Source: a virus. From it: a stretch of 62,041 nt of DNA. Shown one piece after another: positions 9,401 to 42,516 of the stretch. Each line of letters opens with the position of its first letter. Position 1 is the first letter of the stretch. The position numbers were made by a program, and so were the translations under genes. The notes below the pieces were generated by a model that saw only the letters and a list, made by a program, of their open reading frames with translations, was not told the DNA's origin and searched no databases. The stretch is taken from IMG/VR virus record IMGVR_UViG_3300014208_000007, positions 1 through 62,041 of that record; one strand, written 5' to 3'.

Positions 9401-12400
9401 CCAAGGCCCGATCTTCCTTCAGATACGGTCCATGACTTCCTCCCCATGACATGATGGACAAAGGTGTCCGTCCCTTCCTCGATGTCGACAGCGTATCCCT
9501 TTACTTCTTGGAACCCCGGAGTGTCGGACTGTACCCCCTTCGCCACAAAATACTTTTTCGTAGTTGGGGCGTCCGCAACGTCTTCCTTCCCGAGGACCTT
9601 CCCCTCCCACCAGTCCGCCTCGGGGGCCACTTCCTTCGCCATCACGGGGTCCGGAAGGCCGGTAAGTCCGGTCAGGTCGATCTCGTCTGCCGGTGTCTTC
9701 GACAGGTCCTCTACCGGCATCGCCTTGAGTTCCGCTTCCACTTCGATCAGGCGGCTTTCCTTGGCGGCGAGGTCGTCCTCGTGGTCGAACGGTTTATCAA
9801 GAAGTTCCCCGAGGTCCTTGTTCTGCTTGGCGAGCCGGTCGGTTTCCTTCCTTAATTCGGCCGGTTTTTCCTGCGCGTTCCGGACGAAGGTCTCGATCGA
9901 CGACATCACGCCGCGGGGGGTGGAGACGGTACGGTTTGCCCCAAGTTTGTCGCTCATCGTCTTTTCGAAGAGTTGATACCTGAATCCAGCGTCGCCTACG
10001 GTAACAATTATCCCATCGCCTTTCGCCATATTTACGTAATTATAATCAACGGTTGATTCCACTCTCATACCGAACGGAATACCATTCACGGTTCCGGAAT
10101 ATACCTGCGAAAGATTGACGCCGTTGCTTTTTAATTCATAGAACCGATCCCTGCTGTTTACATTTTTGAATGCTTCTGCGGTCTTCGCTCGAAGGGTTTT
10201 CTCTACCTCCGTGAAATGCTCAACGAAGGAATCCCTATCGAAGTCACCCTTTACCCCGGACAGCTTGAACTCGACTACCTTCCCGTCCGGGAACGCCTTG
10301 GCGAGAATCTTGATGGCGGATTCCCATTCCTTCGCGGACGCTTCGAGCCTTTCGATGCCGTTGTTGTTCTGCCATATGGTCGTCCTTGCCCTGCCGATTT
10401 CGTTCTCGTGGGAAGATTTCAGGGACTTGAGATTCCGGATCTGGCTTTCCAACCCGAACTTCTCCCGGACCTTCGGATTCCCGAAGGACGCCATCATATC
10501 TTCGAACGTACCCTGCGCCGGGTCGAACGGATCTTCAAAGGTCCGATCCTGCAGGTCGCCGCGGAGGATCTGGTTGATGAACTTCTGTTTCGTCTGAAGG
10601 CGCTGCGCGGCGACGGAATCCATGGTCGCCTTGTGCCCGTAGGTGGTTATGTCGATGGTGTCGATCGTGTTCCCTGGCCGCCAGATACGCCCGTTCCGCT
10701 GCTCGAAGTCCATCGGCCGGCCGGGGATGTCGAGGTGGTGGGCCCGGACGAGGCGCTCCTGGATGTTGACGCCTACCCCGAGCTTCTCCGTGCCCCCCAT
10801 GACGAACCGCACTTCGCCGTCATTCACTTTGGCAAAGAGGGATTCCCTTTTCTCGTCGGTCTTGTAATCGTGGATGATGGCGATTTCGCTCTCAGGCACC
10901 CCGTTCTTTATGAGTTTCTTCTTGATGTCCTCGAAGAGGTTGAATTTACCGTCGGGACTCTGATACAGGTCGGAGAAGATGACCTGCGCGGCTTTCAGCT
11001 CCTTCGTGTCCTTCCACACCTGCACGGCTTCCTCGACGAGCCTGTTCACCTTGGACCCCGGGATGTCCGGCCGAGAAGAATCGACCAATCGGAGGTCGAT
11101 CGCCGCCTTCTTCGCCAGACCGAAGAGGACCATGGGAACGTGGCGGCTGTCCCTCTTCTCCCTACCGGGCAGTTTGTCCCATGCTTCCTTCTGCAACTTG
11201 ATCCCTTGGATAAAACTCGCAAGTTCGGCCGGCCGCTCCAACATGATCTGCCGTGGGGCGCCGCCCTTGATCGTCGGACGGGCCACGTTCACGTCTTCCG
11301 CCATGATGACGTCGGCCGCCGTTCTCCACATCGTCAGGAGTTCCGGGCCGTTGACGTACTCCGCGAACCGCGAGACCTCCTTGAAGTCCGTCGTCATCGT
11401 TTCTTCCAGTTCCGTCTTCACGTTGCCGAAGTTCGCGGCGAACGCATCGAAACTGGTAACGCCGTATGCCTCCATGAGGTCGGGACGGATGTACCGCAGG
11501 TGCGTCCACAACTCCGCCATGGTGTTCGATATCGGAGTACCGGTGGCGATGATGACGTTCTTCCCGCCGGTCTTCCCTCGAACCTCGGCCGTCTTCAGGA
11601 GGTGAAGCATGGAACGCCCGGCCGATCCAGAGTCGATCCCCTTGACCCGGTCCATCTTCGTGTAAAACTCGCTGCGCTTGTATTTGTGGGCCTCGTCGAC
11701 AAGGAGGGCGTCCACCCCTAGGTCGTCGAAGTTCAGCATCCCTTCCTTATGGCCGCGCGCCAGAAGCGCCACGATCTTCTCTTCCTTGTTTTTCTTCAGT
11801 TTCTCCCACTGCTTTACGGTCCGCTTGTCTTCCCCTCGCGCCTCCATCTCCTTGATGATGGCTTCCAGTTCCGCGACCTGCTCCTGCACGTAGGCGGCTT
11901 CCTTCTCCGGCTTCACCGACAGCATGTCGTAGGTGCTGTGCTGAAGAACTACCGCGTCCCAATCACCTGTCGCTATCTGGGCAAGGAGTTTCTTTCGGTT
12001 CTTCGCCTGGAGCTGTCGGGTGTTCGGGATCAGGACCCTCGCCGTCGGGTACAGTTCACGGAACGCCCTGCCGTACTGGTTGAGGGTGGACCCCTGTACC
12101 ACGATCATCGGCTTCTTGGCCGTTCCGATGCGCCGCATCTCCATGGCCGTGGTGGCGAAGATGTAGGTCTTCCCGGTTCCGACCGCATGGGCCAACAGGG
12201 TGCTCTCCTGCAGCGACCGGGAGACCGCTCGCTTCTGGTGAGGATGCAGCGTGATCGAATGCGAGGCCCCGGGGTAATGCTTCATCGTCGGCGTGTGCGC
12301 GGTCTTCAGGACCATGTTGTTCTTGTCGCGGTTGTAAATGTCCTTCAGGACCGGCGCCCACTTCTCGCTCTTCCTCGTCCACGACAGGAACTCCGCCTGC

Positions 12401-15400
12401 AGTTTCTTCTGCATCTCGCGGGCGGCGATGGTCCTCTTTTCGTCAACCACCCACTTCGGGGCATTCCTCTCGCCCACGTCTATACGGACTTCCGTGAATT
12501 TCAGGTTGAAGGAGTCCTTTAGGATATCGAGCGCGTTGGCGCCATCCACCCCCCACGTGTTCTGCGCAAGGGCGGAGAGCCCGTGTCGCGGGTTATCCAT
12601 GAAAAACTTGCTGTTGTCGGCGGATTCAGAATACGAAACGGCGATGTCCATGCCGAGGGTGTCTTTGATGAAGTCGGTATATGCCTCCGTGGGTACCCAC
12701 GTCGACCCGATCCTCATGTATATCTGGTCGATCTCAAGGTCCTTCGGCTGCACCCTCTTCAGCGCCTCGATGTTCTTCTCGAACCGCGGATCGTCCTTGA
12801 CCGCCTCTTCCGCCCGGATCAGTTTGTCGCGCACGTTCCCGGAAAGGTATTCGTCCTGCCCCTCGAGCAGGCCGGTGGCGGGGTTGATGTACGCAAGTCC
12901 GTCATTGGCGAGTTTTTCCGTGACGCCTTCCACGGTGCTATTCAGAAGTTTTGCGATGTACGCCGCGTCGACCTTGTTCCGGTACGTCATCGATATCTTC
13001 ACCGCATCGTCGGCCGACTCCGCCGAGACCGGTTCCTTGAACGGGAAGATGGTCCGCTCCGTGAAGATCGCCGCCTTCACGAAAGTCTTTTCCTTCGCTG
13101 TGGTGGTCTGCCCCTTGTTCGGCCCGCTCTTCACCAGGTAGGTCTTCGGGACCTCGACCTGCTTCTCCAGGGAGAGGGCAAGCGGATACTCGCCGTCTTC
13201 GGAAAGCCACTGATGGGACTTGTCGGATACCGGCCCGTGGCGTTTCACGAATTCGTCGTATGCCTTGTTGAGTTTCGTCCGCTGCGCTTCGATCTGTGCG
13301 TCCGTCGATCCCTCGTCGAGTTGCAGGTGGATCAGTTCCTTCGCCAGATCCCGTACTCCGATATACCTTTTCGCAACTACCACTCTCGCTGCGTACTTCG
13401 TGAAGTCGGGACGTACCAGTTCCCCGCCTTCGTTCACGTACAGTTGCCCGTCCTTTTCGAGCAGGATCCCGTTCTTCGTGCCGGATTCGGCGAAGACCGT
13501 TCCCTGCTGACTGACAAGCGCCCCCTCGCCGGCGATCGCCGCGGGGAAACTGTTGACGGCCTTGGCGAGTGCCTCCTCGAGGGGTTCCTTGCCAGGCAGG
13601 AGGGTGTATTCCTTCCCGTCGCCGCCGTACATCGACCCCTTCATGGAGTGCTCGCCAAGGACCATCTCGGGGTGATTGATGAAATACTCGTTGACCGGGG
13701 CGTTCTCTCCGGCGGCTGTCTCCACAGTCAGGACGTTGCGGAACTGCTGCGCGCCGGTGAACTGCGAGGCGTCTTTTTTACGGAACACGAGGATGTCGGT
13801 GACCACTTCCGTCCCTGCGCTCTTCTCGAACGCGGCGGAGGGAAGGCGGACGGCTCCTACGAAATCCGCCTTCTTCGCAAAGTAGTCACGCATCTTGCCG
13901 CCGGAAGCGGAGTCAAGCGTGTAGTGAGACGTGATTGCGATGACGATTCCGCCTGGACGGACGAGATCGATCTTTCGTGCGATGAAATAGTTGTGGATGC
14001 TCCAGCCGGAATAATCCTTATGCTTGGGGTCAGTGACAGGATACTTCCCAAACGGCACGTTGGATATGGCGAGGTCCGCGGAGTTGTCCTTCATCGCCTG
14101 TGCGGTCTGGAACCCGGTGATCTGCACGTTCGCCTCGGGATAGAGGCGCTTCAGCATGGCCCCGGAGGTCTTGTCGAGCTCGACCGCCTGGACGATTGCG
14201 CGCTTGGCGATGCCTTCCGGCATCAGACCGAGGATGTGCCCAATACCTGCGGAGGGTTCCACGATCCGGCCGCCCTTGATCCCAAGGCGTTCCGCGATCG
14301 GCCACAGCCCTTTCGAAATGACTTCCCGCGAGGTGTAATGCGCGTTCATCGTGGACGCCTTGGCGGCGTTCCACTCCTCTTTGGAGAGGATCCCGCCGAG
14401 GTCCGGGTGGAGTTTCTTTCCGATGCGGTCAAACCACTTCTTGTATTTCTCAGGCTCTCCCTGCCACGACTGGATGGTCCCGTCCTTCTGTCTGTCGTAG
14501 ACGACTTCTTTGTCGAAACCGAACACGTCCTGCGCGAGGGACCCCCACCCGGAAAATTGAGCAAGGATCTTCTTCTCTTCGGGAGAGGGGTTACGGTTTT
14601 CCGCTTCGAGTTTTCGGGAGAGTTCTAACGCCTTGATGTTTGCATTGATCCGGCCGACCTTGCCAGCAGGTACGATTATATCTCCTGGAGCAATGACGTG
14701 GTTTCGGTCCTCGATTCGTACAGGTTCTCTGCCCACTGGATGATTGCGGACTTCAGGGACTCCTGCAACGGCTCCGGTTCCTTCTCCGGCGGGGGCGGCG
14801 ATATCACCTGCTCCGCCACGATCTCGTCGATCTGGTACCTTGGAAGTCCCTTTTCCTGAAGGTTGTACCCCAGGTCCAGCGCCCGCCCCACCTTCTCCGA
14901 CAGGTACATCCGGAGTGCCGACCGGTCCTTGAAGTACATCTTCTTCACGAACTGCGGCTTGTTCTCCAGGAGCCACAGAAGGTGGTCCATCCAATAACTG
15001 TCCTTCTCGTACTCCCTCGCCAGTTCCACCAACATCGGGGACTCCTCCTGATTCTATTGGGAGCGGTTTTTTCTCGGTTGTCAAGGGGGAAGTTACAGGT
15101 TCCTGGGCGATCTGTTTTCGCACCTCCGCCGCTGTAATTGCATTTTCTATCACCTCTTCCCGGGTGGCCCAACCGAGGCCATCGGCCAACAGGGGTTCTA
15201 CCGTGCGACGTACCCCCTCTTTCGTGATCTCGTAGGAGTATCGCCCCTTGTCGTTCTGGAGAATCTTGTAATCAATGTTCCCAAGGGTTCCGGCACCCTT
15301 TCTTGCGAGGTCTGCCCGCAGCGCATGTTCCGGAGAGAGAGAACCAGCAGCACCTTCTTTATTCTTTGTGAATTCAGTAGGAGACACCGTGGCCTTACTT

Positions 15401-18400
15401 CCCTCAAGGCGAATGTTCCCTTCCGAGTCGATATGTGAAATCTTATGCCCGGCCTTGTTCCATCCTGTCCTGTAATAAACCGTATCGCCGACACTGAATC
15501 CCTGCGCCAAAGTGAGTGCCTTGTTGGAGGAAACCTTTTCCTCGATCGGTATGGCCTTCACGCCATCGCGCGTTGGAATAATCGCGGCCTTCTTCCATGT
15601 GACGACGGGGGCCGACTCCGGTGTCTCTTCCTTCGCCTTCTCCTTCAGCCACGCCGCTTTCTTCTCGAACGGTTTCAGCGTGAAGAATTTCTGCGTGGCC
15701 CCCACGCCCGCGGGGAGTTTCTGCCCGGTGATCTCGTAGAAGATGTTCCGGCTGATCTTGTTCGACGGGTGGAGCATGGAGTTGTAGGCGCCGCGCTCGA
15801 TGGCGGTCCGCACCATCGCGGCGGACTTGATGGCAGCCGTCTCGCTGATCTTGTCGTCGATGGCCCGGTAGCGGTCGGCGATCTTCTGAAGTTCCTTCCC
15901 GCGCTCCGGCAGGGTCCCGTCCTTCAGGAAGTCCCGGACGAGGCGATAGTCGGTCATGACGGGCTGCAGGTGCGGCGACAGGTTCGGCTGGTAGCCAATC
16001 TGCCCGGGCTTCAGGTAGACGAGGAACCGGGGATCCGATTCGTGCTTCCCGAGGTCCCTGTTGCGCTCCGACATCGGCCGGCCTTCCGGGGCGGTGATGA
16101 CGTCCATGTCCGCGTCGGTCAGGTCCTTGCCGGGCTTGTCGATAGGGAGGCCCTTGAAGAGTTTCTGGTCTGTCTTGGCACGAGTAACCTCTGGCTTAGG
16201 CGTGCCTTCGCCCCCCTTGTCGACAGGTGCCTCCGGGGGGACGGAAGGGGGCGGCTCAACCGGTGCCTTCTTCGCTTCCGGGACCTCGACCACGCCCTGC
16301 TTGACCACTCTCGTCTCAGGAAGGACCTTGAAGTCAGCCTTGTCGGACTGCCCGATATGGGACGCCCACTGCTGGACTTCCTTTTTCCCGACCTTGTCGG
16401 TCTCAAGGGACCCAAGGTTGTGCTTCGCCGATGCCTCGTCGTCCCATACGATGTTCGTGGTCCCGTCGGAATTTGCCGAGGTGACCGTACCCTTCGACCC
16501 GTCGAAGATGGATTCGATCCGCTTCCCACGGATGGCCTCTACTCCGTGGGGGAGTTGGTCGAGGTGGACGGTGCCGGTCGCCTTCGATTGCTTGATGGCG
16601 AGGTTCCGCTTCTCGCGGTCAAGGCGAACATCCTTGCTTGTTGGATCAAGTTTCTCCCCCGATCTCGGCACCGCACCCCGTTCAGCTCGAGCATTCTCGA
16701 AGGATATCTCCGCTTCGGTCTTCTTCCGGGCGGGTTCGGGAACGACTACCTCGATCGGTTTCGGCTTCTCGCCGGCCAGTATCGCCTTGCGCCGGTCCTT
16801 CAAGGCGTCCAATGATCCCTTGTGCTTACTCAGGCGGTCGGACAATTCCATCCGCCCTAGGGTATCGGATGCCGGGGTATCCTTCAGTTCCTTCTCGAGG
16901 TTGGCGATGTGGGAATCGACCACCTGGATGTCGGAATCCACGGTCGGCAGGTCGGGCACCTGGCTTTCGGGGTACGGTGATCGGACAGGGCGCGGAGCGG
17001 TGCGGCGGTCGCCAACATGTGCCTCGGCCGCCTTCGCCGCCGCCTCGAGGTCAGTGAACTGACCGAGGGACTTCCCGCCCGGGGCCTTGGCCTCCCAGAC
17101 GGCCTCTCCCTTGTCGTTCTGCACCTCAACGATACCCGCCTTCGCGGTGCCGAAGTCGTCATCCTGCACGTCGAGGAAGTGCGACGGCTCGCCGGGGATG
17201 GCGCCGCGGTCTCCGGTCCAACGGTCGCCCGGGGGCGTCACTGGAGCGTCGGATACTTCGTGCGGGACGGGGCGGAGTTCGCTCTTGGGCTTCTCAGCCT
17301 GCCTTGTAAGGTATTTTTGATGTAACAGGGAATTTTTCAGGACGTAGGTAATCCCCTGCTCCCTCGGGGATTTACCTCCATACCCCATCTCTGGATCATC
17401 CAGAATTTCCTGTTGAATCTCGGGCGGGAGAGCGGGATTCAACTGATCGACCTTTCCGGGTTCGAATGCTACCCCTTTCCCTTCCTCGGCAACGGGAGCG
17501 GGTTTCTTTTCCCCGGCTTCAGGGACATTGACGGTCTCCTTCTTGGCTTTCTTCGCCGCCTTCGGCGCAGGTGGGGCCGGTTCAGGGGACGGAGTAGGAC
17601 CGGGGGGCGGAGCCTCTTCCGCGGCCTTTCCACCCTTCTTCTCTTCCCGGGTCTCCCGGAGCGCTGACCCGGCGCCTCCCATGAGGCCCATGATGAACGA
17701 CGGGGGGATAACGTTGATCCCGGAGATGAGTTGTTTTTTCGCCTCTTCTGCGGAGGGAGGTTCATAAGATACCCTTGCGTTTTCGTCGTAAAACGCCTCT
17801 TGCGCCTTGATTTTACGGACGTTTTCAGGTTCGGCAACAACATTCTTCGCCAGTATCTCGGCCGGTTCCTCAAGGTATTCCGTCCCCGCTTCGACGGCGC
17901 CGGTAGTCAACCAGTTGAGAAGGCGGGATTTCGCGCCTGGGGACTTGAGCATCTTCCCGACGGAGATAGCGTTGAGTCCGGCCGAGGCAAGCGTCATCGT
18001 CTCGCCGGCCAAAAGCGCCTGATCCTCGGTTCCTCCGCGCTTCAGGACCTCTTCGAAGGTCGACGCCCCCTCGAGCGCCCCGCCCGCGGAGCCACCGGCA
18101 ACGGATCCGCCGATCTGCGCGAGGCGGGCAATCACCTGTGGAGTCCACTGTATAGCCTTCCCGAGCACCTGAATCCCACGTCCTGCTCCCAAGGCCGGAA
18201 TGATCGAGGCGGCGAACGACGGGACGGTATCGGCTATGTTGTAGGCCCACCAAGCGGATTCTCCAAGAAGTTCGGGTTTCTTCAGGATGTCACCTTGGAG
18301 TTTCGTATCCGGCTTGAAGTTTTCGGCCGCCCCCTCCCAGAATTCCTTCGCCACCCGGCCGGCGCCCGAAAGCGACGGAATACCCAATTTCCTTCCGGCG

Positions 18401-18903
18401 ATATCGGTAAGGGTTCCGATGGTCTCGCCAAGACGGGTAGTCCCATGAAGAAGTCCGGTTCCAAGCGCCTCGGCCGTGCCGCCCTCCGACCCCGGGTAGT
18501 CGACGACAGGGAAGCCCCCGGCCTCTTCTTGGGGCCGAACCGACCGCACCATGGCGTCCCTCGCCCTCGAAAGCGGCCCCTGTGCCGCCACAGGCTGCGC
18601 AGGAGGCACGGAAGCGGCGGGGAGGGGGGTAGGGGCGGCGGAAACGGGTTCCGCCACAGGGGCGGCGCCCTCGGCCCCGGCAAGCATGGATTCCTCGGGG
18701 GGGACAGATGCCACCGGGGGCCCGGAGGGTTGCCGCAGGGTCAGCAGGCGGGGGATGTCCTCGGTGACGACCCGCTTCGCGCGCTCCCATGCGGTGTCGG
18801 GAGCAGGACTCCCGAATTCCGAGAATGCGCTCTGCCCGGAGGGGGTTGGCGGTAAATGCTCTTCAGCGGCGCTTCCCTTGCCGAATTCGTCGAATGCGCC
18901 CAC
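6433..18903 (-). CDS. Giant polyvalent protein, 4,156 aa: Gly-zipper/hydrophobic N-terminus, N6-adenine DNA methyltransferase module, SNF2/DEAH helicase module, long C-terminal region (P1 DarB-like architecture)
   Basis: Uninterrupted ORF with a GTG start 2 nt after the upstream stop. MTase motifs VEPSAGIGH and NVPFG. Helicase motifs AVGTGKTY, DEAH, ATGTPISN and QRNGRIWRPGN. Lies inside the virion gene block. Confidence 0.8.
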   Translation of the reverse strand: MGAFDEFGKGSAAEEHLPPTPSGQSAFSEFGSPAPDTAWERAKRVVTEDIPRLLTLRQPSGPPVASVPPEESMLAGAEGAAPVAEPVSAAPTPLPAASVPPAQPVAAQGPLSRARDAMVRSVRPQEEAGGFPVVDYPGSEGGTAEALGTGLLHGTTRLGETIGTLTDIAGRKLGIPSLSGAGRVAKEFWEGAAENFKPDTKLQGDILKKPELLGESAWWAYNIADTVPSFAASIIPALGAGRGIQVLGKAIQWTPQVIARLAQIGGSVAGGSAGGALEGASTFEEVLKRGGTEDQALLAGETMTLASAGLNAISVGKMLKSPGAKSRLLNWLTTGAVEAGTEYLEEPAEILAKNVVAEPENVRKIKAQEAFYDENARVSYEPPSAEEAKKQLISGINVIPPSFIMGLMGGAGSALRETREEKKGGKAAEEAPPPGPTPSPEPAPPAPKAAKKAKKETVNVPEAGEKKPAPVAEEGKGVAFEPGKVDQLNPALPPEIQQEILDDPEMGYGGKSPREQGITYVLKNSLLHQKYLTRQAEKPKSELRPVPHEVSDAPVTPPGDRWTGDRGAIPGEPSHFLDVQDDDFGTAKAGIVEVQNDKGEAVWEAKAPGGKSLGQFTDLEAAAKAAEAHVGDRRTAPRPVRSPYPESQVPDLPTVDSDIQVVDSHIANLEKELKDTPASDTLGRMELSDRLSKHKGSLDALKDRRKAILAGEKPKPIEVVVPEPARKKTEAEISFENARAERGAVPRSGEKLDPTSKDVRLDREKRNLAIKQSKATGTVHLDQLPHGVEAIRGKRIESIFDGSKGTVTSANSDGTTNIVWDDEASAKHNLGSLETDKVGKKEVQQWASHIGQSDKADFKVLPETRVVKQGVVEVPEAKKAPVEPPPSVPPEAPVDKGGEGTPKPEVTRAKTDQKLFKGLPIDKPGKDLTDADMDVITAPEGRPMSERNRDLGKHESDPRFLVYLKPGQIGYQPNLSPHLQPVMTDYRLVRDFLKDGTLPERGKELQKIADRYRAIDDKISETAAIKSAAMVRTAIERGAYNSMLHPSNKISRNIFYEITGQKLPAGVGATQKFFTLKPFEKKAAWLKEKAKEETPESAPVVTWKKAAIIPTRDGVKAIPIEEKVSSNKALTLAQGFSVGDTVYYRTGWNKAGHKISHIDSEGNIRLEGSKATVSPTEFTKNKEGAAGSLSPEHALRADLARKGAGTLGNIDYKILQNDKGRYSYEITKEGVRRTVEPLLADGLGWATREEVIENAITAAEVRKQIAQEPVTSPLTTEKKPLPIESGGVPDVGGTGEGVREGQLLDGPPSVAPGEQAAVREEDVLQGPVGTPDVPVGEGGAGAGPGVQPSGKGTSKVPDRRDRGGAGDIAAPAGEGTGAVAGVPEVRNHPVGREPVRIEDRNHVIAPGDIIVPAGKVGRINANIKALELSRKLEAENRNPSPEEKKILAQFSGWGSLAQDVFGFDKEVVYDRQKDGTIQSWQGEPEKYKKWFDRIGKKLHPDLGGILSKEEWNAAKASTMNAHYTSREVISKGLWPIAERLGIKGGRIVEPSAGIGHILGLMPEGIAKRAIVQAVELDKTSGAMLKRLYPEANVQITGFQTAQAMKDNSADLAISNVPFGKYPVTDPKHKDYSGWSIHNYFIARKIDLVRPGGIVIAITSHYTLDSASGGKMRDYFAKKADFVGAVRLPSAAFEKSAGTEVVTDILVFRKKDASQFTGAQQFRNVLTVETAAGENAPVNEYFINHPEMVLGEHSMKGSMYGGDGKEYTLLPGKEPLEEALAKAVNSFPAAIAGEGALVSQQGTVFAESGTKNGILLEKDGQLYVNEGGELVRPDFTKYAARVVVAKRYIGVRDLAKELIHLQLDEGSTDAQIEAQRTKLNKAYDEFVKRHGPVSDKSHQWLSEDGEYPLALSLEKQVEVPKTYLVKSGPNKGQTTTAKEKTFVKAAIFTERTIFPFKEPVSAESADDAVKISMTYRNKVDAAYIAKLLNSTVEGVTEKLANDGLAYINPATGLLEGQDEYLSGNVRDKLIRAEEAVKDDPRFEKNIEALKRVQPKDLEIDQIYMRIGSTWVPTEAYTDFIKDTLGMDIAVSYSESADNSKFFMDNPRHGLSALAQNTWGVDGANALDILKDSFNLKFTEVRIDVGERNAPKWVVDEKRTIAAREMQKKLQAEFLSWTRKSEKWAPVLKDIYNRDKNNMVLKTAHTPTMKHYPGASHSITLHPHQKRAVSRSLQESTLLAHAVGTGKTYIFATTAMEMRRIGTAKKPMIVVQGSTLNQYGRAFRELYPTARVLIPNTRQLQAKNRKKLLAQIATGDWDAVVLQHSTYDMLSVKPEKEAAYVQEQVAELEAIIKEMEARGEDKRTVKQWEKLKKNKEEKIVALLARGHKEGMLNFDDLGVDALLVDEAHKYKRSEFYTKMDRVKGIDSGSAGRSMLHLLKTAEVRGKTGGKNVIIATGTPISNTMAELWTHLRYIRPDLMEAYGVTSFDAFAANFGNVKTELEETMTTDFKEVSRFAEYVNGPELLTMWRTAADVIMAEDVNVARPTIKGGAPRQIMLERPAELASFIQGIKLQKEAWDKLPGREKRDSRHVPMVLFGLAKKAAIDLRLVDSSRPDIPGSKVNRLVEEAVQVWKDTKELKAAQVIFSDLYQSPDGKFNLFEDIKKKLIKNGVPESEIAIIHDYKTDEKRESLFAKVNDGEVRFVMGGTEKLGVGVNIQERLVRAHHLDIPGRPMDFEQRNGRIWRPGNTIDTIDITTYGHKATMDSVAAQRLQTKQKFINQILRGDLQDRTFEDPFDPAQGTFEDMMASFGNPKVREKFGLESQIRNLKSLKSSHENEIGRARTTIWQNNNGIERLEASAKEWESAIKILAKAFPDGKVVEFKLSGVKGDFDRDSFVEHFTEVEKTLRAKTAEAFKNVNSRDRFYELKSNGVNLSQVYSGTVNGIPFGMRVESTVDYNYVNMAKGDGIIVTVGDAGFRYQLFEKTMSDKLGANRTVSTPRGVMSSIETFVRNAQEKPAELRKETDRLAKQNKDLGELLDKPFDHEDDLAAKESRLIEVEAELKAMPVEDLSKTPADEIDLTGLTGLPDPVMAKEVAPEADWWEGKVLGKEDVADAPTTKKYFVAKGVQSDTPGFQEVKGYAVDIEEGTDTFVHHVMGRKSWTVSEGRSGLGFGGIHDTREAAIEGAKNAIDTLPGKSLKKWLDENLTAAVEKQDQGYSPRYGKKPTASSSDPEQALADVVNKVIPESEPSAGLSIRPVDVVIGKPEYSEKDYAFGTEESEARYKAAHGLKPEPLLGRAREVVRALVNKATREYEHLPRNAEFAPLRTALLRLSKQKGVAADRTVRAMQAITVKFDKVRMGLFERKVLLDDLAEEAKADHLLPFGFTKESVAAELAKIDRLVGRDPVVEQGLFLRQEFSESVKQSYISAMGAIGFKVADRFTKENYFRHQVIEYANLKGVAGTGKRLRTPTGRGFLKKRKGSEYDINTNYLEAEYEVIAQMLYDIEVAKTIKAVDDVYNVASMTKDVGIPEGYIEWQPREGNTFYMAESIPAKLADQLREGALDMAEVDPDLIRQVMALGGKRKRFIVKQEVADTLNSLLKAKPQGVLLGYDKKILTGWKVWQLVSPRRFFKYNFRNLTGDADAAFVGNPSTFKKVPQAARELYQVFTSDRGMTPEMREWFKRGGFETTLQAQELSELNKMRIFSHVREAGEPLRDLPVAAFKKYWKTVRLATDFRESVLRYAAFLDYIEQIKADPKGTPKNFGASIPEEITAIKDPHDKAFTLSNQLLGAYDQVSVMGNAMRDHLIPFWSWKEVNFRRYIQFAKNAASDKKVAEAVGRKALGAFAKTPYTAWRVGKFLISATAFWAMLQAWNNLMFPEEEDELDEQNRNRPHIIFGRDPDGKIINFTRIGALGDFLQWFGLDAFPLHVSRWASGKRTLREIALEMAKSPVNVIAQGITPIAKTPAELASGKVLFPDVFKPRTIRDRGYYLAQSVGLENEYKEIAGLPSEGYQKSLAQFFVYRADPGQNAYSDILQARSRYLEKIGKASEGAFISPKNNALYNLRLAIRYKDADAKEKFMEEYLSLNGTPEGIRSSLDRMHPLGGMNKKDGRDFVNTLDAEEKDKLAKAIHFHENVLSAGERDIVREARIMRNRILRERR
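10600..12260 (-). other. SNF2/DEAH helicase module of the giant protein (approximate bounds)
   Basis: Motif I GTGKTY at 12163-12180, motif II DEAH at 11686-11697, motif VI QRNGRIWRPGN at 10669-10701. Confidence 0.7.
13700..14560 (-). other. N6-adenine DNA methyltransferase module of the giant protein (approximate bounds)
   Basis: SAM-binding motif VEPSAGIGH at 14236-14262 and catalytic NVPFG ((D/N)PP(Y/F)-type) at 14047-14061. Confidence 0.7.
14676..15035 (-). CDS. Nested 119-aa gene overprinted in the +1 frame on the giant ORF; helical protein of unknown function
   Basis: ATG at 15035 with GGAGGAG 6 nt upstream and an in-frame TAG 7 codons upstream. Protein-like sequence (MLVELAREYEKDSYWMDHLLWLLENKPQF...). 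By hand count about 101 of 119 codons end in G/C, the genome's coding signature. The giant frame here is A/T-rich at position 3. Confidence 0.6.
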   Translation of the reverse strand: MLVELAREYEKDSYWMDHLLWLLENKPQFVKKMYFKDRSALRMYLSEKVGRALDLGYNLQEKGLPRYQIDEIVAEQVISPPPPEKEPEPLQESLKSAIIQWAENLYESRTETTSLLQEI

Positions 18904-36904: not shown

Positions 36905-39129
36905 TGGCCGTCCACCGAAGGCTCCGACAACTGCCGGGGAGGCGCGAAACCGTTCCCGCCGCCGATGGTTTGCGAATCCGCTATAAGAGCGTCTGCTGCC
37001 GAGACGATACCGGGGGCGCTCGCCACCGCACCGGCCGCCTCCATCGCCTTCAGGTACCCGTCGAGCTTCTTCATCTGCGCGTCGACCGTGTTTTTCAGGG
37101 CTTGCGCACTTTGATTCGATGCGTTCGCATTCGCAACGGCGACCTGCGCTTGCAGGAGGGCGGTTTGCAACGCCTTGAGCATCTGCGCTTCCTGCCCGGC
37201 TTGCGCGTCTTGAGCCTTCGCCGCCTCCTTCTCCTCCGGCGTTATGTCTTCATCCGGAGACCGCTGCCCGCTGATCTTCCGGATCCGGGCCATGATCTCG
37301 TCCTTGTTCGGCAGGTCGTCCATCATGTCGACGGCGAGGTCCAGGATCGCCAGACCGACGTTCGCCTGCCCGGACTGCGCCAACCCGAGGATCAGGTCGG
37401 TGAGCATCTGCAACATCGTGAGGCGTAACGTCTCCCGGAAGTCCTGCTTGGTGACGATGAAGTCCGCCTTGACGTCCTGCATGGAATTCTTCACCGATCC
37501 GTCGGGTTGCGGCTCGTTGACCGTCAGGAAGTCGTCCTTCTGCCGATCGCCGGTGATCCGGAATTCCATCATCCCGTCGATGAACTGCTCGATGAGCGAC
37601 ACCTTGATCTCGCCGCCGCTTTGGAAAGCGTAGTAATAGTTGTCGAAAAAGACTCCCGAGGTGGTGTGCCCCTGCAACTGAATCGCCTCGATCGCCTTAC
37701 CCGACAGGTCCTTGCGTACCGTGCCCTTGTTCTCTGGGGTGACGCCAGAGATTCCCTCGATGAATCGCTCGTCGTCCCGCGCCAGTTCGACGTGCTCCCG
37801 GGCAAGCACGATGTCCTTCTGCGACTGGACCTTGTTGCTGGTCAGGGCGCCGTTCGCCACCTCCGCCATACCGTCCGGCCGGTTGTTCTCGTCGTAGAAC
37901 TTGACCGGATCGTCGATCGCGCCCCTCTCGTACCAGACCTTGTTGGCCGTCAGGAGCACCAGCGCGCGCGACCGGCGCTTGTTCAGGTCGGACTGCGGGT
38001 CCCGGATGTCCCTGATGACGCCGTAGGGCATTCCGTTCCGCTGCATCCGGTAACAGAACATCGGGACGAACGGGAACTGATCGTGGTTGTAGGGCGACAG
38101 GACGTCCTGGAGGTAAGTCGACCCGGCCCACACCGCACACCGCACCGTCATGCGCTTCTGCGGTACCAGGTCGAAGTACCCGCCCCGGACGAGGTACTGG
38201 TGATCGGAGTGCGTCGGCCGGAAGATCGTTCCATGCAGGGCGCCGTAGGGCGTATCGGTGTCCCGCATTCTCATCACTTCGACGTTGGCCGGCATCCGGT
38301 ACCACATCTCGACCGGCTTGATCCGCTTGCGGTTCGTGTCGAACGGACCGCCGAACATCGAATCGATATCGCTCTCCATGTCGAATTCGGAGGCCAGATC
38401 CGTCGTCACCATCTCGTCCGGCATGTACGGGTAGAGGGAGTTGACGCCTTCGGCCAACACCCGCAACGCCTCCGCGCGCTCCGGGAACATCTCGCTGATG
38501 ATGTCCAGGTCCGCCCACTTCGACCGGATGACGTATCGCCAATCGCTGCCGTCGTTCGAACTGCCGAGGTGGTCGAACCACATGTTCCGCCACTTCTCGG
38601 ACCGCTCGAAGATCGGACACCCGTCGACGCCGGACTGCGCGCCGAACTCCATCCACCCGAGCCCCGCCTTGACTGCCGACTCGAACGCCCAGGACCGGTG
38701 ATACTCGCCCTTCGACGAGTCCTGCACGTATTTCATCACCTGCGTCTTGCTCTTCGCTCCCTGCGCGCCCTTCTTCTTCCGCGGCAGCACCCGGTAGTCG
38801 ATCCGGTTCTTCCGCTCGACGCCCAGGATCCAGTTCACCGTGTTCTTCACGACGTTGAACGCGAGGACGGGCTGATTCCGGTCCATCAGCGTCCGGACGT
38901 CCTCCGCCTCCATCTGGATCCCGTCGTAATAATCCTCGTCGATCGCCATCTCCGTCCGGTTGTCGGCCTGCGCAACCCGCGCCTGCCGGTACCACTGCTG
39001 CAACCGGTGGAGCCGATCCTGCCATTCCTGCGCCTCGAGGGGATGGGACAGGCCGGAGGACGCGACAACGGCGTTCGCAGCGGCCATATCCGCCTTCGGG
39101 CGCTTCTCTCTGCGGGTCGGTAGGGCCAT
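36901..39129 (-). CDS. Portal protein candidate, 742 aa
   Basis: Size and position downstream of TerL. Coupled start. Call is by synteny only. Confidence 0.55.
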   Translation of the reverse strand: MALPTRREKRPKADMAAANAVVASSGLSHPLEAQEWQDRLHRLQQWYRQARVAQADNRTEMAIDEDYYDGIQMEAEDVRTLMDRNQPVLAFNVVKNTVNWILGVERKNRIDYRVLPRKKKGAQGAKSKTQVMKYVQDSSKGEYHRSWAFESAVKAGLGWMEFGAQSGVDGCPIFERSEKWRNMWFDHLGSSNDGSDWRYVIRSKWADLDIISEMFPERAEALRVLAEGVNSLYPYMPDEMVTTDLASEFDMESDIDSMFGGPFDTNRKRIKPVEMWYRMPANVEVMRMRDTDTPYGALHGTIFRPTHSDHQYLVRGGYFDLVPQKRMTVRCAVWAGSTYLQDVLSPYNHDQFPFVPMFCYRMQRNGMPYGVIRDIRDPQSDLNKRRSRALVLLTANKVWYERGAIDDPVKFYDENNRPDGMAEVANGALTSNKVQSQKDIVLAREHVELARDDERFIEGISGVTPENKGTVRKDLSGKAIEAIQLQGHTTSGVFFDNYYYAFQSGGEIKVSLIEQFIDGMMEFRITGDRQKDDFLTVNEPQPDGSVKNSMQDVKADFIVTKQDFRETLRLTMLQMLTDLILGLAQSGQANVGLAILDLAVDMMDDLPNKDEIMARIRKISGQRSPDEDITPEEKEAAKAQDAQAGQEAQMLKALQTALLQAQVAVANANASNQSAQALKNTVDAQMKKLDGYLKAMEAAGAVASAPGIVSAADALIADSQTIGGGNGFAPPRQLSEPSVDGQ

Positions 39130-39987: not shown

Positions 39988-42516
39988 TCACTGACTCCTC
40001 CATGACGATCCTCGTTTGACCTTCGCCCGCCAGTCCTTGCCCTTCGGCGACACCTTGACCGTGCAGATCGAGGCGTTGACCACCGCGTCCCCGTCGTCTG
40101 GCGACCGCCCAAGGCGCTTCTTGATGCCGGGCCCGTCCGGCCCGTCTTCCTTCGGCTCGACGAGGATCCCGCCCGGCGTCAGCTTCCACATCGGCGCGCA
40201 CAGGTCGGCGCGCAACTGCGAGTCGTTCGGCAGCGCGATGTTGTCGCCGATCTTCGGGTCCAGCGACTCCCTGAACCGCCACCAGAGCATCGCCCGCTTG
40301 TTACGGAACTTGAGGCGATTCGTCATCTTGTCCGTCTGGCCCTCGACGCCCTCCCGGTCCCCGCCGTTGACCGCAACGACCTGGACATCGTTCGATTCGA
40401 GGTGATCGACCACCGACCCGCCCACGCCCACGACGTCGACGTGGACAGGCGCCCCGTCCCGTCGGTTGGCGACCACCAGCCCCGCGGTCGTGCCCCCGTC
40501 CGGCGTTTCAGCACCCGGATACCGCTTCAGGGGCGCGTACCAGGTCCCGTGCCGCATCGCCAGCACGGTCTTGTCCTTGCCTCCGCGCGCCACGTCCACA
40601 CCCATCGAGTCCATCGGCCTGCCGAGACCGCCCTCCGGCGTCCACCGGGCCATCGCCGCATCGATCCACGCCGTCGGGATCACCTGCCACGCCGAATCCT
40701 CCGTGCCGGCCTTGAAGTCCCCGCGGAGCATCTGCGACCGGAGCGGCTCGGGCAACGCCTGGAGCTGCGCGACGTACCCGGACGACATCAGGAACGCATT
40801 GTCCTGGACCTTGGAGGGGATGAACGTGCGGCTTTGCGGCTGGATCGTCTCGCCGTTGTGGACGAACAGCGCACCGTCGGGGCGCTCGATCTCCTCCCCG
40901 TCGATCATGGCGTACCACCGCAACTCGCCCGGCTTGGCGGGGTTCGGGTGCTTGTCGTCCAACCATGGGGCCCAGAACTTGACGACCCACTGCCCGTCCT
41001 GATTCGTCGGGGGATTCCCCGCGCACACCACCCGGCACCGCTGGCCGGGGGTCGTGGTGCGCAACCACCCCGCGAGGAATCGGAACTGCTGCTCAAAGAA
41101 GTGAGTTATCTCATCAAAGCAATTCTTGTTGACAAATCCGGCCCCTGTTATATAATGATTGACGGATTCAACAGTTAAATCGAATAATTCTGTCTCGGGG
41201 AGGTCTGAAAATGACACCAAAGCAGGAGAAACATCAGCCTGTGTTTGACGTCTTTCCATCGTATAAGGGTGGTCGTACCACCGAATACGGTGGATACGTC
41301 TGGGAAGAACTCCCGGGGCACCACCTGCAAAACCTTTGGGGATACGTCGCCCAACATCGCCTTGTGGCCGAAGACATATTAGGGCGCGAACTCCTGCCGG
41401 GGGAGACGGTCCACCATATCGACGAGTGCCGATCGAATAATTCACGGGAGAACCTTGTGGTAATGGGAACGACGGCCCACCGCCGATACCACGCGAGGAA
41501 GGCGGGTCTTGCAAGCCGCTCGCCGATAACGCGAAAGATGGTACGGGAAGCATTGCGGTCAGAAGGTGGGATAAAGCCCGCCGCGCGGCTCCTGAAAGTC
41601 TCTCATTCCACACTTCGCGGAAGATATCCTGGGCTTTGTAAGCCGTATCAGCGGACCAGCCCAACGGTGATCGACAACCCGAGAGATATTGACATAGTGC
41701 TCGCAGCCGCCCCGGATCCAAAGATCGGACTCCGGGAGATAATGGCGGCCGCCCATATGTCGGCGATGACGATCCTTCGGATATGCAGGCGGCGCGGAGT
41801 GACGTGGGTGAAAAAGACAAAGGCCGGGGAGATTCATAGAACGTATCGCGGGAAGCCCACCCGTCGGTCGTTAGAATCGAGTGATTCCGACTCTGCACCT
41901 GCTGGCCGATAACGCGACCATTGATCGAAGCGGACACCAACGCCGCCGGTTTACTGACAACGTGAAGCTGTGATACGCGACGAGAACCCTCGAGCGTATC
42001 AACAAGATCCCCAACCTTCACGTCCTCGACGGGTTTCCACGATCCGTCGGCCATCCACACAGGCGTCCCGCGCCCAACGCAAATCAAGTCGTGCGGCCGC
42101 CCCTGGTACCGGATCTCGTCGCCGAGGTCCTTACACGACCCGAGCTCCACCTGCCGCCCGAGTTTCGGCAGGCGCCACACGTGCTCCTGCCCGTTGTACC
42201 CGTCCCGCGTGCCGAGGACTTCCGTGGTCCGGTCGATGATGGCGAGGAGTTGCGTGCCTTCCCGCCTGAAGATGATCGACCGCCGGTGCTGAGTCAGTGC
42301 CAACCCGATCAGCAGGTCCGTCTTGCCGCCGCCGGCCGCGCCGCCGTAGTAGACGATGTCCGCTTCGGACTCAAACGCAAGCGTTTGCGGCCCGGGCTGT
42401 GGAACCCATATCGGTTGCTCCGCCGCAAGGATCCCGTCCACCTCGGCCATCTCCGCGGGGGTGAGGAAACGCAGCACGGACGCCAGTTCGGCGATCTGTG
42501 CCGCTGCGCCGTTCAC
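39988..42516 (-). CDS. terL: Terminase large subunit, 842-aa precursor containing a 320-aa intein (522 aa after splicing)
   Basis: Walker A YYGGAAGGGKTD. Walker B is split as HDLI|intein|CFDEITHF. ATGA overlap with the TerS stop. Confidence 0.8.
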   Translation of the reverse strand: MNGAAAQIAELASVLRFLTPAEMAEVDGILAAEQPIWVPQPGPQTLAFESEADIVYYGGAAGGGKTDLLIGLALTQHRRSIIFRREGTQLLAIIDRTTEVLGTRDGYNGQEHVWRLPKLGRQVELGSCKDLGDEIRYQGRPHDLICVGRGTPVWMADGSWKPVEDVKVGDLVDTLEGSRRVSQLHVVSKPAALVSASINGRVIGQQVQSRNHSILTTDGWASRDTFYESPRPLSFSPTSLRAACISEGSSSPTYGRPPLSPGVRSLDPGRLRALCQYLSGCRSPLGWSADTAYKAQDIFREVWNERLSGAARRALSHLLTAMLPVPSFALSASGLQDPPSSRGIGGGPSFPLPQGSPVNYSIGTRRYGGPSPPAGVRALICLRPQGDVGRRIPKGFAGGAPGVLPRRIHRIRWYDHPYTMERRQTQADVSPALVSFSDLPETELFDLTVESVNHYITGAGFVNKNCFDEITHFFEQQFRFLAGWLRTTTPGQRCRVVCAGNPPTNQDGQWVVKFWAPWLDDKHPNPAKPGELRWYAMIDGEEIERPDGALFVHNGETIQPQSRTFIPSKVQDNAFLMSSGYVAQLQALPEPLRSQMLRGDFKAGTEDSAWQVIPTAWIDAAMARWTPEGGLGRPMDSMGVDVARGGKDKTVLAMRHGTWYAPLKRYPGAETPDGGTTAGLVVANRRDGAPVHVDVVGVGGSVVDHLESNDVQVVAVNGGDREGVEGQTDKMTNRLKFRNKRAMLWWRFRESLDPKIGDNIALPNDSQLRADLCAPMWKLTPGGILVEPKEDGPDGPGIKKRLGRSPDDGDAVVNASICTVKVSPKGKDWRAKVKRGSSWRSQ
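41129..41156 (+). promoter_or_regulatory. Consensus sigma70-type promoter for the HNH gene (TTGACA-N16-TATAAT)
   Basis: TTGACA at 41129-41134 and TATAAT at 41151-41156, followed by GGGGAGG at 41197-41203 and the ATG at 41211. The hexamers are formed by the antisense of intein codons FVN and NHYI. Confidence 0.6.
41211..41912 (+). CDS. HNH homing endonuclease with C-terminal HTH-like regions, 233 aa, encoded antisense inside the TerL intein
   Basis: GYVAQHRLVAEDILGRELLPGETVHHIDECRSNNSRENLVVMGTTAHRRYH is a canonical HNH motif. Has its own SD and promoter. Confidence 0.75.
   Translation: MTPKQEKHQPVFDVFPSYKGGRTTEYGGYVWEELPGHHLQNLWGYVAQHRLVAEDILGRELLPGETVHHIDECRSNNSRENLVVMGTTAHRRYHARKAGLASRSPITRKMVREALRSEGGIKPAARLLKVSHSTLRGRYPGLCKPYQRTSPTVIDNPRDIDIVLAAAPDPKIGLREIMAAAHMSAMTILRICRRRGVTWVKKTKAGEIHRTYRGKPTRRSLESSDSDSAPAGR

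Follow-up and report, generated by a model that had tools for sequence, protein, structure and literature searches.

A probable mobile intein in a phage terminase gene whose homing endonuclease appears to be a separate antisense HNH gene

Several arrangements are known in which an intein, or the gene around it, is associated with an endonuclease that is not read in the splicing frame. Antisense LAGLIDADG endonucleases have been recognized in the inteins of Synechocystis DnaX and of a Chloroflexus SpoVR-like protein (Gorbalenya, 1998; Gogarten, 2002, both as related in 10.1101/2025.01.02.630785). The same survey describes inteins of actinobacteriophages in which a LAGLIDADG or VSR-like endonuclease is encoded antisense and whose hosts include terminase large subunits, and it proposes that free-standing endonuclease genes have invaded inteins. 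In a cyanobacterial dnaX intein harboring an out-of-frame LAGLIDADG endonuclease, selection is frame-specific (10.64898/2026.09.14.751524). In “fractured genes” of phages, one of them a terminase gene, a free-standing endonuclease lies between the halves of a split intein (Dassa et al., 2009; PMC2677866). ShiLan-type elements, inserted in the DNA methylase genes of phages, conceal an HNH endonuclease in another reading frame (Arsenault et al., 2025; PMC11855218), and inteins of the mycobacteriophage terminase large subunit (TerL) include one at the Walker B site, called TerL1-e, according to Kelley et al. (2016; PMC5050341). Here we describe an intein in the terL gene of the IMG/VR virus record IMGVR_UViG_3300014208_000007, of which the whole stretch of 62,041 nucleotides was analyzed (hereafter, the window). 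An HNH endonuclease gene is situated within this intein on the opposite strand. An earlier note on this DNA had supposed that inteins carry their homing endonuclease solely in frame. This supposition does not hold, since antisense and out-of-frame cases have been published, and because antisense endonucleases in inteins are among them, the architecture is not categorically new.

Probably, with a rough probability of 0.8, the element is a mobile, contiguous class-1 terminase intein whose homing endonuclease is a separate antisense gene for a protein with HNH and helix-turn-helix (HTH) domains. This reading is built on the anatomy of the locus, two kinds of selection, fold predictions, and a presence/absence polymorphism at the insertion site. 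The terL precursor open reading frame (ORF), comprising N-extein, intein, and C-extein, occupies positions 39988-42516 on the minus strand (842 codons plus stop) and was defined from the ORF list and homologues. Its product gives a weak match to Pfam Terminase_6N and has 2756 TerL homologues at E ≤ 1e-10. A 320-codon in-frame insert (41122-42081) interrupts the Walker B motif. The N-extein (42082-42516, minus strand; codons 1-145) ends with ...YQGRPHDLI, and the C-extein (39988-41121, minus strand, including the stop codon) starts with CFDEITH, which contains the Walker B Asp-Glu. These boundaries were set by alignment to intein-less alleles, a check that the earlier note had proposed. Two such TerL proteins, P0123 and P0124, are 522 aa each, are 85% and 80% identical to the window protein, and read ...HDLKGFDE... 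at this site; in the intein-less allele L031, the site reads ...cacgacctgaagggcttcgacgagatc... / ...cgcgcgcacgacctgaagggcttcgacgagatcacgcat.... The alignment places the insertion point two residues before the Walker B Asp-Glu, and the spliced TerL is predicted to be 522 aa, the same length as the intein-less alleles. The GC content at third codon positions (GC3) is 0.51 in the insert vs. 0.86-0.90 in the exteins. All the coordinates and motifs given in the earlier note for the terL ORF, the insert, the HNH ORF, the Shine-Dalgarno sequence, and the promoter are correct in the sequence.

The insert (41122-42081, minus strand) has the features of a class-1 intein: Cys1, a block B of the S-x-x-H type, a block F LFDLTVESVNHYIT, and a Cys at position +1. 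It begins with CVGRGTPVWMADGSWKPVEDVKVGDLV / CVGRGTPVWMADG and ends with ...NHYITGAGFVNKN / LFDLTVESVNHYITGAGFVNKN, after which the +1 Cys follows; its block-B segment is QSRNHSILT, in which SRNH fits the T/S-x-x-H pattern, and its block G is GFVNKN. In an AlphaFold2 model made with 20 homologues, residues 1-82 have per-residue confidence scores (pLDDT) of 80-95. They form the Hint N-lobe (41836-42081, minus strand), with blocks A, N2, and B and a GW motif. The C-lobe, residues 266-320 (41122-41286, minus strand), contains the Y.HPYT strand, blocks F and G, and the terminal Asn; the last ~50 residues of the model score 62-93, residues ~290-320 being the well-scored part (80-95). Residues 83-230 and 239-265 lie below 50. 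With Foldseek, every one of the best hits to this model is an intein or a Hint domain, including PI-SceI domain I, Prp8, Mtu RecA, DnaB, and gp41-1, and the target-normalised TM-scores (TMt) against the Ssp and Npu DnaB mini-inteins are 0.70-0.76. C1, H67 of block B, G74, W75, and N320 are invariant in 20 aligned inteins, and Cys1 is present in all loci as well. At position +1, the aligned precursors have Cys, two loci of a divergent clade (L029 and L030) have Thr, and the mini-intein of L052 apparently has Ser. At the level of sequence profiles, the match to Pfam Hom_end_hint is below the threshold (20.5 vs. 32.1 bits), and no PHROGs family was matched by the intein. Thus, of the profile check suggested in the earlier note for both domains, the HNH half gave a Pfam HNH_3 match above the cut-off and the Hint half gave only a sub-threshold Pfam match, the Hint fold being recognized instead by AlphaFold2 and Foldseek.

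This anatomy bears on the idea that the insert is not removed as protein at all, being either a tolerated surface loop of TerL or a self-splicing intron with an antisense endonuclease gene. Phage methylases do carry out-of-frame HNH insertions that have no splicing domain (PMC11855218), and the N-terminal domain of the HNH protein resembles sequences lying under mycobacteriophage methyltransferase genes. On the other hand, two residues separate the insert from the Walker B Asp-Glu, the insert contains a complete Hint domain, and an intron would need no open frame. An Rfam scan of both strands of 40800-42400 (E ≤ 1) detected no intron or other RNA family, and so lends support neither to an intron nor to a structured RNA. 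Removal at the RNA level, or no removal, is therefore very unlikely.

The antisense gene (41211-41912, plus strand) encodes a protein of 233 aa with an N-terminal HNH_3 domain and a C-terminal tandem HTH, as judged from Pfam, PHROGs, homologues, and an AlphaFold2 model. It matches Pfam HNH_3 (PF13392) with 28.8 bits at a cut-off of 24.8, as well as Pfam HTH_28 and HTH_8, and it matches HNH endonuclease families of PHROGs with an E-value of 1e-16. In metagenomic protein collections, 122 homologues were found, nearly all of full length, and a profile search of 1.84 billion cluster representatives yielded 162 HNH clusters at E ≤ 1e-30. H68, H69, N77, N81, and H90 are invariant in 43 sequences. 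Modelled by AlphaFold2 from the alignment of its family, the protein averages a pLDDT of 90.5, and confidence is lowest at the termini. With Foldseek, the C-terminal half resembles the bipartite HTH of Tc3 transposase and the Pax paired domain, and the nuclease part shows a weak likeness to the HNH domain of type I-F Cascade. A nuclease motif with an appended DNA-binding module is the composition of an HNH_3 homing endonuclease, to which class this protein would belong by its sequence. The 233-aa HNH ORF recognized in the earlier note thus represents a domain-bearing protein with a confidently predicted fold.

A tblastn search of annotated phage records with the HNH protein hit the nuclease domain only (~35% of the query, ~40% identity), and the element was present in none of these records. 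The matches, to HNH residues 16-95, lie under methyltransferase genes of the mycobacteriophages Mantra, Totinger, Bipolar, and Filuzino. These may be the hidden HNH insertions, read out of frame, that have been described in phage methylases (PMC11855218), in which case the nuclease domains would be related.

The same layout recurs widely. DNA around HNH homologues 38-88% identical to that of the window was collected as a set of 26 loci, from virus contigs and from metagenome-assembled genomes labelled Gallionella, Cyanobacteriota, Stenomitos, and Chlamydiae; identities in this range mean that the loci are not assembly duplicates of one sequence. In all 26, an opposite-strand terminase ORF of ~800-900 codons runs straight through the HNH gene in the same register, and the remaining two antisense frames contain 1-22 stops. 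Where both junctions are on the contig, the intein is inserted at the identical site (H-D-x-x / C...N / C-F-D-E). The two most distant HNH homologues (31-34% identical; L029 and L030) have the same layout in a different terminase clade with a +1 Thr. An intein-based search of virus contigs gave 42 loci, of which ~33 have an antisense HNH match; these HNH genes are nearly all intact ORFs of 212-320 codons, one being cut by a contig end, and in 42/42 the part of the intein that was matched is free of stops in the host frame. In ~15 further loci reached through the intein, the terL frame is likewise open. Altogether, more than 40 loci drawn from viral and genome collections are concordant, and in every locus examined the HNH gene was found exclusively inside the intein.

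There are further variations in these terminase genes. Those of L029, L023, L027, L048, and L065, which have the antisense HNH gene, are 1070-1460 codons long. The gene of L029 (1545-4745, minus strand) has a second, C-terminal mini-intein (C...HN, then C), so that one terL can hold multiple inteins. Public gene calls for L001, L004, and L005 include nothing of the element but the HNH gene and the C-extein part, overlooking the stretch of N-extein and intein; because gene callers split these terL genes, the class is mis-annotated in public assemblies.

Between the two lobes, intein residues 83-265 (41287-41835, minus strand) are a linker that corresponds to the reverse-complement reading of the HNH gene, as indicated by pLDDT values below 50, composition, and codon changes. 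The earlier note had described this stretch as non-protein-like in the terL frame. Indeed, 69% of its residues are S, P, G, R, L, or A, vs. 44% in the C-extein, and it is predicted to be unstructured. Long shadow ORFs, antisense to the portal gene and others, are common in the GC-rich window and reach 538 aa in the one opposite the portal gene (37507-39123, plus strand); an open antisense frame by itself therefore means little, and a test is needed. In this test, the HNH protein and its codon usage were kept, synonymous codons were permuted, and terL-frame stops were counted. For the window, the shuffles predict 5.7 stops on average, and none is seen (P(0) = 1.5e-4 to 5e-4). Summed over the 26 loci, ~198 terL-frame stops were expected from synonymous shuffles and 0 were observed, a total in which the loci, being phylogenetically related, do not count as independent events; judging from its extent, their divergence is nevertheless ample opportunity for stops to arise.

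The register explains which sequences are avoided. Position 1 of each HNH codon is opposite position 1 of a terL codon, so that a terL-frame stop requires an HNH codon NTT, NTC, or NCT followed by an A-initial codon. In the 26 loci, such codons precede an A-initial codon in 0 of 1031 cases, while other codons do so in 31%. The stop-free terL frame holds also where the HNH gene has a GC content of 40-46%. The statement of the earlier note that the terL frame stays open across the HNH gene applies to every locus examined.

Two alternatives are affected by these counts. One of the overlapping ORFs might be a chance shadow ORF, either because the HNH ORF is no gene or because terL is open by accident and dead, and the many long antisense ORFs elsewhere in the window lend this some color. 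It is nonetheless exceedingly unlikely: the HNH protein has above-threshold domains, 122 homologues, and a confident fold, the openness of terL has a P of ~2e-4 in the window and persists at an HNH-gene GC down to 40%, and the Hint catalytic residues are invariant. The other alternative is a fractured gene, in which a split intein would flank the HNH gene and TerL would be made as two polypeptides joined by trans-splicing. Free-standing endonucleases between split-intein halves are known, including one in a terminase (PMC2677866), and public gene callers do break terL around the HNH gene. However, no terL-frame stop is found in any locus, against the ~198 expected in the 26, and the risky dicodons are completely avoided, which would be pointless for a split gene. 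A fractured terL is accordingly highly improbable.

Codon changes distinguish the two frames. The window and L001 differ at 106 positions across the 702-nt HNH ORF, 63 of them at HNH codon position 3. In the HNH frame, these give 56 synonymous and 29 nonsynonymous codon changes, and in the terL frame, 9 synonymous and 73 nonsynonymous ones. This comparison of sequences supports purifying selection that acts in the HNH frame but not in the linker's terL reading. The linker appears to be constrained in the terL frame only against stop codons. Toward the ends of the HNH gene, real segments of the Hint domain are overlapped: the last ~25 HNH codons are opposite intein block B and the invariant Gly-Trp, and the first ~25 are opposite the conserved Y-x-H-P-Y-T strand, of which HPYT is kept in HNH-less mini-inteins and hence belongs to the Hint domain. 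Both frames are constrained in these end regions. The earlier note was thus right about the antisense overlap inside the intein and understated its extent, as ~25 codons at either end of the HNH gene also encode genuine parts of the Hint domain.

Expression signals for the HNH gene are also found within the intein. A sigma-70-type promoter-like site, TTGACA-N16-TATAAT (41129-41156, plus strand), lies inside the last 12 intein codons. With 12/12 matching bases it is the sole such site in the 62 kb of the window, and 100 shuffles produced no other. The −35 hexamer is the reverse complement of a stretch that covers the final base of the Phe codon, the whole Val codon, and the two leading bases of the codon for the invariant Asn; the −10 hexamer is likewise antisense to the initial base of the Ile codon, the complete Tyr codon, and two His-codon bases in N-H-Y-I-T. 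The perfect TTGACA-N16-TATAAT that the earlier note had read in the antisense of the F-V-N and N-H-Y-I codons is present and unique in the window. At the homologous position, 19/26 loci pass the criteria of a sigma-70 scan, with a mean match of 9.9 of 12. The Tyr codon is TAT, which gives the essential A at position 2 of the −10, in 20/24 loci, vs. 86 TAT:121 TAC in the C-exteins (Fisher P = 1.3e-4). In every locus, the segment coding for the C-terminal part of the intein (IntC) is lower in GC than both the C-extein and the HNH gene. A Shine-Dalgarno-like GGGGAGG (41197-41203, plus strand) is located 7 nt upstream of the HNH ATG, and GGAG-like purine-rich motifs are found at a similar distance before most HNH starts in related loci. 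The promoter-like site together with the Shine-Dalgarno-like motif supports an HNH gene that would be expressed independently.

The occupancy of the Walker B site varies among phages. In other phages, it holds mini-inteins of the same Hint family that are 151-252 aa long and lack the antisense ORF (L051 2501-2953; L052 2501-3055; L069 2501-3046; L059 2501-3256), and the Y.HPYT motif is kept in them. These HNH-less mini-inteins are candidates for a pre-invasion or a post-decay state. The protein P0122 (L032 3001-5685) has exteins 94% identical to the window TerL and no Walker B intein. It carries instead a LAGLIDADG-type intein after the Walker A lysine, so that near-identical terminases host different inteins at different ATPase motifs. 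Closely related phages without either the intein or the HNH gene also exist. At the C-extein junction, the synonymous codons chosen for the first ~10 extein residues (41092-41121, minus strand) are AT-rich (ttt, gat, ata, act, ttt), vs. a GC3 of ~0.9 in the rest of the extein. The GC content across 41075-41224 is 0.41, and the identity of the window to the intein-less allele L031 and to L032 dips at this junction. By its composition, the 30-nt segment may be a co-conversion tract that arrived together with the intein. In several pairs of loci, identity is higher between the HNH proteins than between the C-exteins, e.g., 0.50 vs. 0.32, and the two identities correlate overall (r = 0.64), a pattern across the sequences that points to largely vertical inheritance, accompanied by some transfer among divergent terminases.

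The same correlation, as a sign that much of the inheritance is vertical, could be taken to mean that the intein splices and that its antisense HNH no longer homes, having become a terminase cofactor, as with HNH proteins whose genes neighbor cos sites and terminases, or taken another phage function, with its position a frozen accident; purifying selection on the HNH frame would follow from any function. The HNH_3 plus tandem HTH architecture is, however, typical of site-specific homing enzymes, the gene is located inside the intein alone in every locus examined, close relatives manage without intein and HNH, and HNH-less mini-inteins exist. A non-homing HNH is thus unlikely. The gene also falls outside the stand-alone, cos- or terminase-adjacent HNH class, being 233 aa long, endowed with a tandem HTH, and always intra-intein. 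The proposal in the earlier note that the nuclease might assist packaging is not favored either, since the gene is intra-intein in every locus and absent from close intein-less phages.

Some observations weigh against a mobile intein with an antisense homing endonuclease, besides the relatedness of the loci mentioned above. Concerning the intein, its penultimate residue is Lys in the window, as the earlier note had seen, and K, R, S, or Q across the family, the usual His being absent. Active inteins without a penultimate His exist, and its absence can slow Asn cyclisation; because of these active examples, the Lys does not exclude membership among inteins. Concerning the nuclease, Foldseek of the whole HNH model against PDB gave nothing at E ≤ 0.001 (best E 0.02), probably because the model is multi-domain, and the HNH profile gave only marginal hits among PDB sequences, to I-HmuI (1u3e; E 0.89) and to HTH proteins (E 0.05-0.6). 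Concerning expression, 7/26 loci fail the promoter scan criteria, conserved amino acids (N, V/I, H-Y-I) dictate part of the hexamers, the sigma-70-type consensus may not be that of the host's sigma factor, and a search for a terminator of the HNH transcript found none. Finally, we infer splicing, transcription, cleavage specificity, and homing from sequence.

With these reservations, the mobile intein with a separate antisense endonuclease would operate as follows. The terL gene would be translated straight through the whole element, its frame being open everywhere. The Hint N-lobe and C-lobe would fold together, leaving the ~185-residue linker disordered in the loop where inteins normally hold their endonuclease. 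Protein splicing would remove the 320 residues and restore ...HDLI-CFDE..., with the junction peptide ...GRPHDLICFDEITHFFEQQFR, to give the 522-aa TerL; the intact catalytic residues and the essential nature of terL argue for this step. The HNH gene would be transcribed from its own promoter, lying within the codons of blocks F and G, and for translation it would have its own Shine-Dalgarno sequence and ATG, as its sequence and the conservation of that sequence suggest. The HNH protein would then nick or cut an intein-less terL at Walker B during co-infection or an encounter with a prophage, and repair would copy the intein into that allele together with the HNH gene and a few neighboring codons of the extein. 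Homing of this kind is consistent with the nuclease family, the domain architecture, the presence/absence polymorphism, and the co-conversion-like tract.

A more far-reaching view is that the element represents an old, widespread, and undescribed class of terminase inteins that is obligately dual-coded with the antisense HNH gene and in which the orientation is adaptive. We regard this as tentative, and on balance doubtful. If the two genes did form an obligate unit, the promoter, the 5′ end, and the 3′ end of the nuclease gene would all be written in splicing-block codons. If the orientation were adaptive, expression of the nuclease from its own promoter, possibly early, would be uncoupled from that of the late terL, and a fully complementary antisense RNA might modulate terL.

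Inteins with a separately encoded endonuclease are expected intermediates in the model in which the splicing domain came first and the endonuclease invaded later, and they are also on the route towards split inteins. The present family offers a large natural series of such inteins: clustering at 50% identity gives ~160 clusters, and there are tens of loci, from no fewer than two clades of terminases (+1 Cys or Thr). Because full, mini, and empty alleles occur at one site, the invasion model is testable both comparatively and experimentally. The locus is also an unusually clean case of an antisense frame selected for openness alone, in which regulatory signals are apparently dual-coded with catalytic protein motifs. 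According to the structural model, a Hint domain would tolerate an arbitrary insert of ~185 residues. The HNH plus paired-HTH enzymes may be new site-specific nickases or nucleases.

Elsewhere in the window, in the phage late region, a single ORF of 4156 codons (6433-18903, minus strand) encodes a giant helicase-containing protein, with a SNF2/ResIII/Helicase_C core at residues ~2200-2750 and no other Pfam match.

As for published elements, a full-text search of the literature found no antisense HNH inside an intein and no promoter dual-coded with splicing blocks, a provisional result in that subscription journals were thinly covered. Provisionally, then, the antisense layout is known but rare, and the HNH version and the block F/G promoter were not found reported. 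The passages of 10.1101/2025.01.02.630785 that were covered give no stop-avoidance statistics and no dual coding at both gene ends, and the word “promoter” occurs 0 times in the text. A term search of PMC5050341 turned up no gene described as free-standing, reverse, or on the opposite strand.

The nearest relatives in layout are the antisense-endonuclease inteins presented in 10.1101/2025.01.02.630785. Like these, the window has an opposite-strand ORF between the splicing blocks of a contiguous intein and an in-frame reading of this region that is structureless. Unlike these, its nuclease is an HNH_3 protein with a tandem HTH, and HNH endonucleases are listed in that survey in frame only; the layout of the non-canonical antisense-endonuclease inteins is thus shared, and their nuclease type, LAGLIDADG or VSR-like, is not. 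The sources differ as well: the window family stems not from actinophages but from uncultured environmental phages and prophages.

The cyanobacterial dnaX intein (10.64898/2026.09.14.751524) is similar in having two overlapping frames, with purifying selection on the endonuclease frame and a relaxed extein-frame reading, and in the coexistence of full, mini, and empty alleles. Its endonuclease frame is called “+2ORF” and never “antisense” or “reverse” in that study, and it is antisense according to 10.1101/2025.01.02.630785. It differs from the window in its LAGLIDADG endonuclease, vs. HNH, and in its location in a cellular replication gene, vs. a phage terminase gene.

Fractured genes (PMC2677866) share with the window a free-standing endonuclease with its own control elements at the point of the intein where an endonuclease is inserted. 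Theirs are, however, two ORFs whose products are trans-spliced, with a GIY-YIG or Vsr-like endonuclease, whereas the frame in the window is continuous and the endonuclease is HNH. ShiLan-type insertions (PMC11855218) resemble the locus in that an HNH is encoded in an alternative frame and the host frame stays open across the insertion; they are on the same strand, have no Hint domain, and are presumably not spliced out, unlike the antisense gene of the window within its complete intein. TerL1-e, as described in PMC5050341, is likewise an intein in the Walker B motif of a terminase, in this case of a different terminase family.

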